From Patescibacteria group bacterium (lineage in GTDB: Bacteria; Patescibacteriota; Microgenomatia; UBA10105; UBA927), in NCBI GenBank assembly GCA_035510735.1, contig DATKGN010000007.1:105-64104 (forward strand): a DNA stretch of 64,000 nucleotides. The letters run 5' to 3'. Position numbers and translations under genes: made by a program. The notes beneath the pieces were generated by a model. That model made no database searches, had not been told where the DNA came from, and worked only from the letters and a program-made list of their open reading frames with translations. Below are positions 38,163 through 43,570 of this stretch, in pieces (the stretch's first letter is position 1; each line of letters begins with the position of its first letter).

Positions 38163-38235
38163 TACTCCCGTTTTAACACTTCAAAAATAGCTGACTTGGG
38201 GAATTTCTACCCGGCCGATCAATTTCCCTGCAGAG
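38163..38235. repeat. degenerate direct copy (copy C) of the lepA 3' end, putative displaced att site
   Basis: 'ctcccgttttaacacttcaaaaatagctgacttggggaatttctacccggccgatcaatttcc' vs lepA 3' end 'ctctctttaacacttcaaaaaacgctgactgagggatttcgacccggcctattaatttca'. Confidence 0.6.
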
Positions 38236-38312
38236 CGGGATTTCGTCCTTCGACAGACTCAGGACTCAACATTCTCGCCTCACCCAACCATTTCCCTTAT
38301 TAACTATATATA

Positions 38313-39524
38313 TTGATATCTAACTATACTTTACTATATAATTCCGACATGGCTGCTATTGAATTTGCGGATGTAAAACCAAAAGATATTGATTTAACCG
38401 GCATCCCGACAGGATGGAATATCCTTTCTGAGGCCGAACATTCGCTGGCTTGGGATTTTTTATCCGGACGAAATACTGAAACGCTTCGGAGCATCATCAC
38501 AATGGAAGGAAGAAATACGTTTATTCTGCGGCCCGGCTCCCCTGATCCGATATACACCCATATTCAGCTTTCCGGAGGATTTTATAAGGAGCTAGAAATA
38601 TCAAGAAATGGGATGGCCATATCCAAAAATACTGTCCATCTATTATCTGCTGATAATTTCGTCTTGGGACGGGAACCCATGTTTAGAACCAATGCAATAA
38701 CAGAGGACGGCCAAATAACGACGACCCAGCCTGATTATGTCCCCACCGGAGCATATACACAAATGCAGGCTATAAAAAAAGCTATTGATACCCTTTCTAT
38801 CACAGCCAGTCTGGAAAAACTGAAAGCTCTCGATTTTCCTGATAAAAAAATGTTTATGGTTCCGAGGATTGTCGGCGTCTATCAATTTCCGGAAGTTACT
38901 GACCCGACAGGTGAGCCGGTATACGGAATTGCTATGCTCACATCTTCCCCTGAAAACAGGCTGAGCCAACGTATAAATAGTTTTTTCAACAGGTATGGAA
39001 AACACTATGAAGCGTCCATAAACAGACGGATACAGAGGAATTTCGGCTACCAAACGGTCGCACTGGGGGCAGCCATACGGACGCTTCATGATTCCTTTGA
39101 CCTGTATCACCGTCAGATAACCAGCGGCAACTGTGAAATTGTAACGTTGCCGGATAACCAGTTCACGCCCTTCTTTCATGATTGGAGCACGACGATGAGG
39201 CTCCCTAAAAACCTTCGTCCTAATAGGATGGCGCGCGCAATTGACCTCATAATACCATGGGCATCCGTTTCCATTTTGATGGACCATATGCGCGAAACCG
39301 GCGCAACAAACAACGACGTTGCGCAATTTATGACCACGTCGTTTCTCGCGAATCTTACGGCAGGGTATGTGCATTTGCTGCCACGAAGATCAAACGAGTT
39401 TGAGAAAGAATTATTTTCTCAATTCACTCTTGCCGAAACGGACAGTAGCACCGTTGAGCGTTTAGCAAATTTTATCACCTCTTTTGATGCTACTATCGGA
39501 GTAGAAACAGAAGAAGAAATATAA
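38313..39524 (+). CDS. hypothetical protein (about 390-403 aa), sole cargo gene of the distal lepA-associated module
   Basis: ORF bounded by lepA 3'-end copies C and B; probable ATG at 38349 (MAAIEFADVK); weak, unverified kinase-fold-like features (glycine-rich 'QLSGGFYKE', 'YHRQITSGNCEI', 'FHDWS'). Confidence 0.5.
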   Translation: MISNYTLLYNSDMAAIEFADVKPKDIDLTGIPTGWNILSEAEHSLAWDFLSGRNTETLRSIITMEGRNTFILRPGSPDPIYTHIQLSGGFYKELEISRNGMAISKNTVHLLSADNFVLGREPMFRTNAITEDGQITTTQPDYVPTGAYTQMQAIKKAIDTLSITASLEKLKALDFPDKKMFMVPRIVGVYQFPEVTDPTGEPVYGIAMLTSSPENRLSQRINSFFNRYGKHYEASINRRIQRNFGYQTVALGAAIRTLHDSFDLYHRQITSGNCEIVTLPDNQFTPFFHDWSTTMRLPKNLRPNRMARAIDLIIPWASVSILMDHMRETGATNNDVAQFMTTSFLANLTAGYVHLLPRRSNEFEKELFSQFTLAETDSSTVERLANFITSFDATIGVETEEEI

Positions 39525-41342: not shown

Positions 41343-41419
41343 ACCGTGAAGTATAATCGTTTATTACAAATTTGTCAATATTATACGAATTTTTGTATAA
41401 AATCGATAAATTTGAACAA

Positions 41420-43570
41420 TTATTCTCTCTTTAACACTTCAAAAAACGCTGACTGAGGGATTTCGACCCGGCCTATTAATTTCATCCGGGCTTTTCCTTT
41501 GGCCTGTTTCTTTAATAATTTATCCTTACGTGTCCTATCGCCGCCGTAGAGCTTCTGGATAACGTCTTTGCGGAATGCTTTCACATCGGCACGTGCTACA
41601 ATCTGGCCCCCAATGGCGCCCTGGATCGGAATCTGGAACTGCTGGCGCGGGATAACCTGGGCCAACCGCTCGACGATGGCTATGCTCCGATGGTGCGCCT
41701 GATCGCGGACGGCGAGAAATGAAAGTGCGTCGACTTTTTCTTTGTTTACCAAAATATCAATTTTTACCACATCGACCGCCTGAAATTCAAAAAATTCATA
41801 ATCCAGGGATGCATAACCCTCCGAAATACTCTTTAAACGGTCAAAAAAATCAATAATCATATCGGAGAGCGGGAGCAAATACGTCATCTCGACCATAATG
41901 CGCGAATCAAATTCATTAGGCTCGTCTTCGACCTCACCCGCTTTGTCTATTGTTGTATTGTTGTATTGTTGTATTGTTACTTCTCCATGTAAGTACTTCA
42001 TATCGATGTATTCGCCGCGCTTCTCCTGCGATAGCTGCATGATCGCGCCGACGTAGCGCTTGGGGGTAAAAATTTTCACATCCATGATGGGCTCTTTCAC
42101 GCCGTCGATGTAGGTTGGGTCGGGAAATTCGGTTGCGGATTGAATGGCGACCTCGACGCCTTGATCGGGCGCTGAGGTTGCTCGTCCAATTTCTCGGGCA
42201 GTTCGATCCCCGCTTTGCGGGGCCGCTTCGCCGGACGTCTCGAAATTGTCCAAGCGCCCCGCGCCCCGTACAAGTTCTGGGTGTTCATTTATAACAGACG
42301 ATACGGTCAATCCTAATTTAGAAAGCGATACGCCGCGCGCGAGCATGAGATGATATTCAACCGACGGCGCCGTCGCAATCATGTCAAGGTCAAACTCACG
42401 CGAAAGCCGTTCCTGCACAATTTCGGCGTGGAGTAAACCGAGGAATCCGCAGTGGAAACCATTGCCCAAGGCAAGGGATGAGATCGGCCGGAAGGTGAAA
42501 GCCGAGTCGCTTAACCGCAATTTTTCCATACACTCGCGTGCATGGGTAAATTCGTCGGCGTTTAATGGGAAGAGGCTCAAAAAAACCATGGGTTTGGGCT
42601 CCCTATATCCCGGTAGCGCCTCTTTTGCCTGCTTAGGCTGTATATGAGCATTCACGGTACTTCCGGCCGTTATGGTGTCACCTACCTTCGCTAAACGTAC
42701 ATCCTTAAGGCCTGTGGCAATGTACCCCACTTCACCAGTCGAAATCCCAGCAGATTTTACCATTTGGGGCATAAAAAAACCTGCCTCAATTGCCTGAATT
42801 TGAGCATTTGATGCGAAAAACTTAATACTCGTATGTGGATCGTACTGCATAGTACCATCAACTACCCGAACAAACACTACTACTCCTTTATGCGGGTCGT
42901 ACTGTGAGGAAAATATTAGTGCCCGCAGTGGTTTATCGGCATCACCGAACGGCGGCGGGATCCGATCAATAATTGCCTCAAGAACCGCTGGAACATTTTG
43001 CCCGGTCTTAGCGGAAATCTCTATCATCTCCTCATCTCTAAACCCTAATGCTCTAAGCTCTGCGCGCGTTTCGACAATGCGCGCGTGCGGCATATCAATT
43101 TTATTAATCAAGGGAATTACGGTGAGGTTGTGGAGGCGCGCCTGATGGAGGTTCGCGAGGGTCTGCGCCTGGACGCCCTGGGTAGCGTCTACCACGAGAA
43201 GCGCGCCTTCACACGCCGCAAGCGACCGGGAAACCTCATAACCGAAATCAACATGGCCGGGAGTGTCGATGAGATTTAATATAAACTCCTCCTTGCTGTC
43301 ATTCCGGGCTTGACCCGGAATCCACACCGCATTCTCATGGATCCCGGCTCGGGGGCCGGGATGACAAAAAAAATGCATCCTCACCGGCGCAAGCTTTATC
43401 GTAATCCCCCGCTCACGCTCAATGGGATTGCTGTCAAGAAGCTGCGCCTGCATATCGCGCATCGCAACCGTCCCGGTAAGCTCCAGAAGCCTATCGGCGA
43501 GGGTACTTTTCCCATGATCGATATGGGCTATGATCGCAAAATTTCTAATATGATCTTGTTTCATATGCAA
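41420..43570 (-). CDS. lepA: elongation factor 4 (LepA)
   Basis: G1 'AIIAHIDHGKSTLADRLL', 'LIDTPGHVDF', 'LVVDATQGVQAQTLAN', 'LINKID'; LepA-specific C-terminus 'GGDRTRKDKLLKKQAKGKARMKLIGRVEIPQSAF'; the track start is a TTG, the likely ATG is 3 nt in (MKQDHIRNF). Confidence 0.95.
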   Translation of the reverse strand: MHMKQDHIRNFAIIAHIDHGKSTLADRLLELTGTVAMRDMQAQLLDSNPIERERGITIKLAPVRMHFFCHPGPRAGIHENAVWIPGQARNDSKEEFILNLIDTPGHVDFGYEVSRSLAACEGALLVVDATQGVQAQTLANLHQARLHNLTVIPLINKIDMPHARIVETRAELRALGFRDEEMIEISAKTGQNVPAVLEAIIDRIPPPFGDADKPLRALIFSSQYDPHKGVVVFVRVVDGTMQYDPHTSIKFFASNAQIQAIEAGFFMPQMVKSAGISTGEVGYIATGLKDVRLAKVGDTITAGSTVNAHIQPKQAKEALPGYREPKPMVFLSLFPLNADEFTHARECMEKLRLSDSAFTFRPISSLALGNGFHCGFLGLLHAEIVQERLSREFDLDMIATAPSVEYHLMLARGVSLSKLGLTVSSVINEHPELVRGAGRLDNFETSGEAAPQSGDRTAREIGRATSAPDQGVEVAIQSATEFPDPTYIDGVKEPIMDVKIFTPKRYVGAIMQLSQEKRGEYIDMKYLHGEVTIQQYNNTTIDKAGEVEDEPNEFDSRIMVEMTYLLPLSDMIIDFFDRLKSISEGYASLDYEFFEFQAVDVVKIDILVNKEKVDALSFLAVRDQAHHRSIAIVERLAQVIPRQQFQIPIQGAIGGQIVARADVKAFRKDVIQKLYGGDRTRKDKLLKKQAKGKARMKLIGRVEIPQSAFFEVLKRE
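41421..41490. repeat. lepA 3'-terminal segment (copy A) that is repeated at 39537 and 38163; putative attL core
   Basis: Reverse complement encodes the lepA C-terminus '...GRVEIPQSAFFEVLKRE*'. Confidence 0.65.
41948..41979. repeat. in-frame octamer tandem repeat (tattgttg)x4 inside lepA, encoding 'QQYNNTTI'
   Basis: Seen directly; lies in a lineage-specific insertion relative to canonical LepA (between 'YHGxxV' and 'LDFFDRLKS'). Confidence 0.6.
43297..43367. mobile_element. ~70-nt palindromic element inserted in-frame in lepA (RPE-like), termini TGTCAT...ATGACA
   Basis: 'tgtcattccgggcttgacccggaatcc...ggatcccggctcgggggccgggatgaca': two internal hairpins plus terminal inverted repeats. It encodes 'CHPGPRAGIHENAVWIPGQARND' between ITIK and LNLIDTPGHVDF. 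Removing it restores canonical LepA spacing. Confidence 0.6.

Follow-up and report, generated by a model that had tools for sequence, protein, structure and literature searches.

Displaced lepA termini support a serially used insertion hotspot for small, recombinase-less cassettes in Candidatus Gottesmanbacteria

What leaves several copies of the end of one housekeeping gene standing in a row behind that gene, with unrelated genes between them? The question is raised by lepA, the gene for the GTPase EF4, in a 64-kb stretch of a Patescibacteria contig (DATKGN010000007.1; hereafter the window, meaning the whole of the analysed DNA). A first-pass annotation had read the recurring lepA 3' ends as the trace of serial, site-specific integration of small modules, and we followed this reading by comparing the locus with those of Candidatus Gottesmanbacteria, a lineage of the candidate phyla radiation (CPR). 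The closest LepA proteins come from metagenome-assembled genomes (MAGs) of this lineage (63-80% amino acid identity) and the host organism, uncultured and ultrasmall, is Candidatus Gottesmanbacteria; genes identical to those of the window are also present on Logan and JGI metagenome contigs. The target gene and the copies of its terminus are as follows.

41420-43570, minus strand: lepA (EF4), 716 aa, the target gene (Pfam GTP_EFTU 7e-53, LepA_C 2.7e-41)
41417-41494, minus strand: copy A, the functional lepA 3' end (last ~25 codons, stop and 3 nt; nhmmer E=7.5e-19)
39536-39600, minus strand: copy B, a displaced lepA terminus that starts 13 nt past the AbiLii stop and encodes VEIPQSAFFEVLKRE* (nhmmer 1.6e-12)
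38162-38284, minus strand: copy C, an older displaced terminus with a 1-nt frameshift (nhmmer 1.7e-13 for 38163-38226)
34587-34634, minus strand: copy D, the fourth and most decayed terminus (..KSAFFEVLKRG), from a peptide scan, nhmmer (E=1.4e-5 at 34592-34632) and repeat-family grouping
Left arm of copy B, AbiLii side: ...CAATCTTGAATTCTAAGGTCTCGTCGAAATT...
Copy B, gene X side: ...GAATAATTGAACTGGAAGAG
Copy A, AbiL promoter side: ...GAATAATTGTTCAAATTTATCG
lepA running into its terminus: ...GGCCGGGTCGAAATCCC...

The recurring segment comprises the last 45-75 nt of lepA and keeps the same orientation in all four copies, which were also grouped independently by repeat finding; with an nhmmer profile built on the final 75 nt of lepA in 17 Gottesmanbacteria, no further copies were found in the window at E<10. 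The lepA open reading frame (ORF) is intact and its product ends ...KLIGRVEIPQSAFFEVLKRE*. Copies A and B are identical over 33 of 33 nt (CAATTATTCTCTCTTTAACACTTCAAAAAACGC), a block spanning the last eight codons, the stop and 3 nt, and share 86% identity over 65 nt; a 38-nt probe (up to 3 mismatches) matched these two alone and had 0 matches in 100 shuffles. Copy C reads GKLIGRVEIPQ/SAIFEVLKRE*, the slash marking the frameshift, and its homology resumes (..GEARM) past an inserted GC hairpin (~38226-38269, at the M|K codon boundary) to continue to about 38284, a layout (..ARM, hairpin, KLIGRVEIPQ..) that is matched by displaced copies in the relatives L008, L013, L099 and L164 (L numbers denote the compared loci and genomes). 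Copy D abuts the stop of a 467-aa gene. Thus the three same-strand copies first reported, the A/B identity and the more degenerate copy C with its longer reach into lepA all stand; the view that the copies bracket exactly two modules does not, given copy D and a variable interval of 20.9 kb. Logan contigs break exactly at the 33-nt repeat, and this we discarded as evidence of mobility, since such breaks are expected from k=31 assembly and are no sign of heterogeneity.

The window lepA is longer than usual because of in-frame insertions (43279-43376, ~42148-42351 and ~41874-41994), which are unalignable even with the 86%-identical relative L007. That at 43279-43376 (..HPGPRAGIHENAVWIPGQARND..) consists of two GC-rich hairpins (fold z -3.0) and is reminiscent of the intragenic Rickettsia palindromic elements.

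Whether the copies record insertions can be read from loci that have escaped them. The comparison set comprised 18 genome loci and 80 metagenome loci, inspected over ~20 kb around each lepA; the counts below refer to the 96 loci in which a lepA end was detectable. Downstream of lepA, relatives have F2 (~240 aa) and then two glycosyltransferase genes (GT-C and GT2), all of which have window counterparts.

19848-20567, plus strand: F2, the conserved convergent neighbour of lepA and far edge of the hotspot (tblastn 44-67% identity to the lepA-adjacent gene in 10 relatives)
13286-16504: GT-C gene, window orthologue, following F2 as in relatives
12259-13263: GT2 gene, window orthologue, following F2 as in relatives

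Five relatives have empty sites in which lepA and F2 overlap by 12 or 8 nt (L123, L125, L129, L136, L137) and two more have a gap of 2 nt (L020, L102); at occupied sites the gap extends from 34 nt to 6.8 kb in relatives and reaches 20.9 kb in the window. The ancestral state is therefore one in which the two genes abut or overlap, with no intergenic space, so that any insertion keeping both of them must rebuild a gene end. The rebuilt end is consistently that of lepA: two to four lepA-end copies, all on the lepA strand, are carried by 25 of the 96 loci (19 distinct ones after removal of same-sequence duplicates), many relatives have one lepA terminus alone, and no duplication of the F2 end was found. 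Displaced copies still overlap or abut F2 in L106, L108, L127 and L164, the ancestral contact being kept. The polarity is visible in one pair of loci, L094 being the occupied version of the L095 site: the flank CATTTCACGAT..CAGGCACGTGT lies past the displaced copy in L094 and directly past the lepA stop in L095, hence the distal copy is the old resident end and the lepA-attached one came with the insert. An empty site had been expected to show lepA next to the gene beyond copy C; the neighbour is F2. Neither is the arrangement universally conserved, which would have spoken for a structural repeat, as empty sites exist among the relatives.

What, then, occupies the interval? In the sense of lepA, the order is lepA with copy A, the pair AbiLi-AbiLii, copy B, gene X, copy C, three orphan genes, copy D and, after a longer stretch, F2.

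41350-41378, minus strand: promoter of the AbiL cassette, near-consensus (TTGACA-17-TATACT, 11/12 match), directly past the lepA stop
40131-41342, minus strand: AbiLi ATPase, 403 aa, cassette 1 (PADLOC AbiLi 2.4e-64; Pfam AAA_21 1.6e-36)
39600-40127, minus strand: AbiLii, RloB-like partner, 175 aa, cassette 1 (PADLOC AbiLii 2.5e-7)
38313-39524, plus strand: gene X, cassette 2, 391 aa from the ATG at 38349, with its own promoter (TTGATA-18-TATAAT) at 38313-38342
36850-38031, minus strand: module 3 orphan gene, 393 aa, between copies C and D
36198-36809, plus strand: module 3 orphan gene, 203 aa, between copies C and D
34633-36036, minus strand: module 3 orphan gene, 467 aa, between copies C and D
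20568-34586: remainder of the variable interval between copy D and F2, ~14 kb of orphan genes in which no lepA remnants are recognisable

By its gene content, cassette 1 is an AbiL abortive-infection system, with a predicted anti-phage function; the partners of homologous AbiLi genes carry the Pfam domain RloB, and the module has a GC content of 0.32-0.41 as against ~0.46 nearby. AbiL was considered as a lepA-targeted system in its own right and rejected, its homologues in the CPR genomes L168 and L170 lying elsewhere and without flanking repeats. Cassettes 1 and 2 each have their own near-consensus promoter, and the cargo first named for them (an AbiL/OLD-like pair and a single uncharacterized gene) is borne out. 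Beyond copy C, the module 3 orphans gave no matches in Pfam, PADLOC or PHROG, the genes between 20568 and 34586, like those at 16635-19718, gave none in Pfam or PHROG, and ten island proteins searched against PHROG gave none either. A paralogous family of HEAT-like proteins (~500 aa; 16635-18167, 18222-19718, 20570-22114 and 23383-24879) straddles F2.

Gene X has no match in Pfam, PADLOC or PHROG (nor did a Pfam search with its family yield any), is not paralogous to the neighbouring orphans, and has two close homologues among 5.8e9 proteins, with 47 remote ones; one of the close homologues is an identical NCBI MAG protein, VMR81_04825, labelled Patescibacteria. An AlphaFold model (AF2) built on the homologue alignment reached a pLDDT of 90 and a pTM of 0.91, and its best Foldseek matches in the PDB were weak ones to protein kinases, SelO and maltose kinase (E~3e-4, TM 0.26-0.39). 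Within the family, H247, H254 and N261 are invariant and D278 is near-invariant, a set of residues that would be compatible with a kinase-like catalytic loop. We regard gene X as a divergent orphan with a predicted protein-kinase-like fold.

The content of the hotspot changes between relatives. L007, the closest of them (lepA 84-90% identical in nucleotides; about 86%), shares copy B, orthologous to its own copy 2, and gene X (87% over 1290 nt) with the window, and carries between lepA and B, in place of AbiL, a methyltransferase-like gene (185 aa) and a 240-aa gene. The cargo of slot 1 has therefore been exchanged between close relatives, with slot 2 left in place. At the same lepA junction the more distant L167 (77% nucleotide identity) has AbiLi, with the same promoter region and a conserved intergenic sequence. 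Elsewhere the lepA-end copies enclose MNT/HEPN pairs (Polbeta 4e-8, NTase_sub_bind 6e-34), YafQ toxin pairs (8e-11) and BrnT/BrnA pairs (9e-23, 1e-25), all of them two-gene addiction or defence units of 0.6-1.2 kb; another nucleotidyltransferase is carried by L013. Overall, the cassette units measure 0.6-1.9 kb and the repeats abut the stop or the start of the cargo genes. Junctions recur: the YafQ cassettes of L013 and L110 end with the toxin stop and a lepA remnant follows at once, and the BrnA stop is followed by TCGGCCGTGTCGAAATCC.. in both L114 and L151, with a shorter version in L100. The identities of the cassettes (65-82%) are discordant with those of lepA (75-78%).

The end of lepA itself may carry a trace of the exchange. 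Compared with L007 in 30-nt windows, the window lepA is 77-100% identical (mostly 83-100%) up to position -92, and over the last 77 nt the identities fall to 67, 67, 77, 63 and 47%, which suggests that the terminal segment alone was exchanged together with the cassette. This drop was seen in the window versus L007 only; the MNT cassette loci, L011/L013 and L094/L095 were uninformative as to donor tracts. Taken with the seven empty loci, the L094/L095 pair and the swap in L007, these sequence comparisons support the view that the lepA 3' end is a lineage-wide, serially used insertion hotspot at which each insertion regenerated the lepA terminus, as the first-pass annotation had proposed. In the titles and abstracts of the literature on lepA, attB and integrase, we found no paper that describes lepA as such an insertion site.

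Most of the repeat pairs do not look like fresh duplicates. Across 19 pairs of true and displaced ends, differences numbered 46, 29 and 152 at first, second and third codon positions, and the differing codons were synonymous in 119 cases and non-synonymous in 52, recognisable copies alone being countable. As such a third-position bias is what termini of different functional lepA alleles would show, rather than a duplicate made in situ and decaying neutrally, the allele interpretation fits better. The outer boundary of homology is constant (the stop codon and at most 3 nt) and the inner one varies between profile positions 1 and 41, giving repeats of 33 to 78 nt. Examined as a possible att core, the copies thus present the 33-nt block of A and B, one fixed and one variable boundary, no dyad symmetry on inspection and no secondary structure beyond chance (fold z 0.18-0.77). 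The fold scores rule out attC-like hairpins; a dif-like site was likewise rejected, as the A-D consensus has, by inspection, only a heptamer similar to a XerD arm (TGTTAAA), with no arm opposite it.

The machinery that one would expect beside an integrative element is missing. None of the window ORFs of at least 150 aa has a recombinase, integrase or transposase domain, in agreement with what the annotation had noted, and no recombinase lies in or beside the 19 distinct arrays of relatives. Visual inspection of 60 long cargo proteins (at least 165 aa) from relatives found a recombinase in the distant L081 alone; this serine recombinase (5017-6612, near lepA) is unrelated, since lepA is not duplicated in L081. 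The lepA neighbours in the window are a HAD hydrolase gene and orphan genes, with no intI. A tRNA or tmRNA was dismissed as the insertion target because the 64-kb window has neither, and Rfam gave no window match at gathering score. A scan of viral contigs for the repeat core returned 0 matches; with this and the ten island proteins that lack PHROG matches, a phage or satellite origin was set aside.

lepA is not the only gene affected. Displaced gene termini flank small inserts at other genes as well, with similar gene-end duplications at F7 and F15 among others. The individual cases that follow have alignment scores of 45-113 against a null maximum of 29. In the window, the last ~14 codons of a minus-strand gene at 5294-5905 (..FILGVIIHSAPH, 5294-5339) are repeated 2.8 kb away at 2459-2501 (..FILGVNIHGAP), and a 918-aa orphan (2560-5316, opposite strand) lies between the two. 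Displaced 3' copies also accompany a gene in L110 (4664-5263; copy at 3822-3900, 79 nt), the GT2 gene of L020 (10873-11763; copy at 10172-10264, 93 nt) and the GT-C gene of L016 (13745-16507; copy at 13073-13150, 78 nt), in each case 0.6-0.8 kb downstream and with mostly synonymous differences.

A second type of insert complicates the picture. In about ten species, nothing but short GC hairpins or a structured element (SE) of ~70-85 nt stands between the two lepA ends. The SE is found past the lepA stop, on the opposite strand ahead of the lepA start, and at other intergenic sites.

43581-43650, plus strand: SE, 70 nt, just upstream of the lepA start (nhmmer E=0.015; DNA fold z=-6.4)
43651-43670, minus strand: weak displaced copy of the lepA 5' end, 20 nt, past the SE (ATGTCTCAGGATCACATCCG = MSQDHIR)
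9465-9519, plus strand: second SE of the window
SE sites in relatives: L106 2222-2299; L118 3007-3081 and 861-934; L113 3588-3664, 5678-5751 and 6661-6735; L107 13970-14044 and 14385-14459; L020 13175-13251
Intact displaced 3' ends: L099 946-1007; L106 2302-2370; L108 3429-3492; L113 5749-5822; L118 3080-3151; L124 10671-10733; L164 519-581; L141 3753-3814

The SE forms a three-helix hairpin with conserved ends (CCCGTA...TACTGGGG), shows compensatory changes at 14 of 19 base pairs and folds far better than its shuffles (z -6.4 and -4.9); it has no Rfam match. Beside it, the lepA 5' end (ATG..HIDHGKSTLA) is duplicated too, with the displaced copy outside the SE (L113 3526-3592 and L118 799-866, 67-68 nt; 33 nt in L106 292-324 / L107 3701-3733), the 5' duplicates that flank the SE in L106/L107, L113 and L118 ranging from 31 to 69 nt. 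lepA thus comes to lie between two SEs in inverted orientation, outside which the old 5' and 3' termini are found, and in L118 the upstream fragment and the SE together form a short ORF whose stop overlaps the lepA ATG (ATGA). Displaced 3' ends adjacent to an SE or a hairpin are intact in every species, with saturated third positions and conserved first and second ones, as if they were under purifying selection or repeatedly renewed. An IS200-like, RAYT-like Y1 transposase gene lies in the lepA-F2 interval of L110 (11306-11992, minus strand; Pfam Y1_Tnp 6e-11), directly beside the displaced lepA end, and a Y1-like gene of L109 (1941-2669), likewise located in that interval, was grouped with it by sequence clustering alone. 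The position of the L110 gene hints that the SE and the hairpins are akin to repetitive extragenic palindromes (REPs); the SE may be REP-like or an unclassified small RNA.

How do the cassettes arrive? We lean, with modest confidence, towards the lepA terminus being a docking site for a family-wide array of minimal cassettes that encode no recombinase, insert in Campbell fashion and depend on catalysis in trans. A cassette would be a small unit (0.6-1.9 kb) made of its own promoter, one or two genes and 45-80 nt of lepA-end homology, and we infer that it would insert as a circle, by a Campbell-type single crossover within the lepA-end stretch. The cassette-borne terminus would become the new lepA end, and the resident terminus, displaced distally with the old downstream DNA, would then decay. 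Repetition would stack the units, the youngest nearest lepA, and recombination between neighbouring copies would delete or swap them, as in L007. Since the cassettes encode no recombinase, the crossover would have to be catalysed in trans, for which we rate RecA acting on short homology slightly above an unlinked site-specific recombinase of the chromosome; within the CPR, a report on Saccharibacteria describes natural competence and homologous recombination demonstrated experimentally (PMC10633639).

Several observations weigh against this proposal. No circular or free form of a cassette was seen, the viral-contig scan for the core having returned nothing, and an unlinked recombinase acting in trans would fall outside the ~20 kb inspected around each lepA. 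An imperfect homology of 45-80 nt is short for efficient RecA recombination, and RecA as the catalyst would let any conserved gene end serve, yet lepA is favoured: it is struck far oftener than the few other genes seen, although lepA loci were those sampled. Furthermore, the divergence of the MNT cassettes between species is about that of lepA itself; several arrays may therefore be old and have passed down by vertical inheritance, instead of having moved recently. The AbiL module, too, is as diverged between the window and L167 as lepA is (77%), which fits poorly with the 33/33 identity of copies A and B, barring gene conversion or re-integration.

The alternatives differ in where the homology comes from and in what joins it. 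A dedicated site-specific recombinase, encoded elsewhere in the chromosome or by a helper element, could use the lepA end as attB and the cassette copy as a presumed attP with strict specificity, by analogy with the pseudo-SCC (staphylococcal cassette chromosome) at rlmH, with integrative mobile elements exploiting Xer (IMEX elements, using XerCD) and with integron cassettes. We consider this doubtful, though far from negligible: the A/B block is sharp and followed by divergence, the outer boundary always falls within a few nucleotides of the stop codon, insertion shows a strong asymmetry, with the same gene end the repeated target in about 19 species, junctions are cassette-family-specific and the exchanged lepA tract is confined to the last ~80 nt. 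The case for a recombinase dedicated to lepA is weakened by the lack of any such gene in the window or next to an array, by inner boundaries that range over some forty profile positions (1 to 41) and by the similar duplications at F7, F15 and other gene ends; the repeats, moreover, possess no dyad symmetry, dif-like palindrome or hairpin. The site-specific character first proposed for the integration is putative. Had classical integrative elements (islands, prophages or satellites) since lost their own integrase, they would have left the textbook footprint of a regenerated 3' end with displaced distal copies, and the low GC of the AbiL module would suit them. We nevertheless find such decay, which the annotation had also entertained, decidedly improbable, because integrases, whole or fragmentary, are missing from all 19 independent arrays; the units span just 0.6-1.9 kb, their repeats abut the cargo stop or start, and PHROG matches are lacking.

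The homology might also arise on the spot. In an 'insertion with long target duplication', some process (a staggered break or a replication-based one) would duplicate 30-400 bp of the target on landing, with no cassette-borne site involved. The defence and addiction cargo, repeats of >30 bp that overlap a gene 3' end, a single repeat at the empty site, the missing mobility genes and the competence of the lineage all agree with what has been published (PMC2853133), and the A/B pair and a 26/26-nt pair in L100 are near-identical, as fresh duplicates would be. Most repeat pairs, in contrast, differ by 15-30%, mainly at third codon positions, and a lepA-end remnant travels with its cassette across species at the same junction, which makes this explanation improbable in our view. 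Finally, the displaced termini could be functional, whether expressed (as a 20-aa mini-ORF or an alternative C-terminus) or acting with the SE in RNA-level regulation. At the SE-type loci the displaced copy is intact in at least eight species and usually keeps the ATG of ..ARM|KLIG.., hairpin inserts are in frame in 4 of the 7 hairpin-type displaced copies inspected, and the differences among species fall alike on displaced ends (246/162/601 by codon position) and true ends (244/139/587). This codon analysis is subject to ascertainment, since recognisable copies alone are found; copies B, C and D of the window are truncated, without a start or frameshifted, and many relatives live with a single terminus, hence we hold a functional role to be very unlikely.

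Carrying the docking-site reading further, we advance tentatively, and as something rather less than probable, that the CPR hold a hitherto undescribed class of minimal mobile cassettes (one or two genes for defence or addiction, together with a promoter and a portable gene-terminus arm of 45-80 nt), which, bringing no recombinase of their own, would spread by DNA uptake and host recombination and form integron-like arrays behind lepA and, occasionally, other genes. Their link with the covarying ~70-nt SE, placed between intact and apparently selected duplicates at both lepA ends, would suggest that gene ends are also duplicated or maintained by a second process.

The tiny genomes of CPR bacteria (Patescibacteria) contain few recognisable mobile elements, and little is understood of how defence genes are gained and replaced in them. 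The lepA locus offers a concrete and repeatable route, in which one housekeeping-gene end serves, throughout a class-level lineage, as the landing pad for toxin-antitoxin (TA) and abortive-infection (Abi) cassettes without a mobility gene. If RecA does act on portable gene-end homology, this would be a minimal form of gene mobility, and the same process could account for the restriction-modification systems that have inserted with 'long target duplication' in other competent bacteria. In practical terms, the lepA-F2 interval is a place to look for new defence genes (the kinase-fold orphan gene X and the 14 kb of orphan genes being candidates) and could serve as a natural neutral integration site for CPR genetic tools.

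Some other features were encountered along the way. About 15 tandem copies of an 8-nt unit (TTACTTGG/TTACTTTG) occupy the intergenic stretch 16497-16614, right after the GT-C gene. At 60909-63836 (minus strand), the window encodes a 975-aa collagen-triple-helix repeat protein (Pfam Collagen 3e-67; 9-nt periodicity in the DNA), adjoining the gene for a 1366-aa M23 peptidase protein, and at 47024-49536 lie tandem sigma-70 paralogues (42% amino acid identity), whose promoter and 5' region, 88 nt in length, is duplicated as well (74% identity). L008 has a candidate hammerhead ribozyme of type III at 9567-9620 (minus strand); its CUGAUGA...GAAAC core is intact, and its 33.9 bits (E=0.0018) fall short of the gathering score, 48.5.

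To which known systems does the lepA array bear resemblance? The repeats of a target 3' end with the gene left intact, and the single copy at the empty site, are those of tyrosine-integrase islands; the integrase inside is absent. In staphylococci, SCCmec and pseudo-SCC islands occupy the 3' end of rlmH (orfX), some units carrying ccr serine recombinases and others being served in trans. The lepA array shares with them the serial, same-orientation insertion at a housekeeping-gene 3' end and the terminus-bearing direct repeats between units; it differs in dimensions, the SCC repeats being defined sites of about 15-20 bp and the units 20-60 kb (here 33-78 nt and 0.6-1.9 kb), and in that none of the units in the 19 arrays has a ccr-type recombinase. 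Tycheposons of Prochlorococcus and other tRNA- or tmRNA-island arrays encode tyrosine recombinases and target tRNA or tmRNA genes. They, too, have cargo modules separated by partial copies of the target 3' end, the newest beside the intact gene, whereas lepA encodes a protein, a GTPase, and its array lacks a recombinase.

Like integron cassettes, the lepA units are small, hold one or two genes (often TA), share one orientation and a fixed site with the newest proximal, and leave the recombinase outside the cassette; unlike them, they have no intI beside the array, their repeats are a gene terminus rather than attC hairpins, and they bring their own promoters. The XerCD-dependent IMEX and dif modules are set apart by a 28-bp dif-like imperfect palindrome, of which the lepA junctions have none. 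'Insertion with long target duplication' was described by Nobusato et al. (2000) and by Furuta, Abe and Kobayashi (2010). It refers to restriction-modification units, mostly in naturally competent bacteria, whose repeats (>30 bp) may overlap a gene 3' end and whose mechanism is unknown (PMC2853133); as in its operational definition, the lepA units measure <20 kb, have repeats of >30 bp and a single copy at the empty site, and lack mobility genes. Those insertions, however, are single events at scattered sites with near-identical repeats, whereas the lepA site is reused serially across the lineage, its cargo is of the TA/Abi kind and, A/B and the L100 pair apart, its repeat copies are diverged and allele-like.

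Among systems with a variable load between conserved genes, the 'minimal mobile elements' (MMEs) of Neisseria are thought to be exchanged by homologous recombination after DNA uptake. The core defence hotspots (cDHS) of P. aeruginosa resemble the lepA-F2 interval in holding a variable defence load between conserved genes with no mobile-element genes (PMC10250203). Both cDHS and MMEs replace their content without duplicating the end of a flanking gene, whereas every lepA unit is marked by a regenerated terminus.

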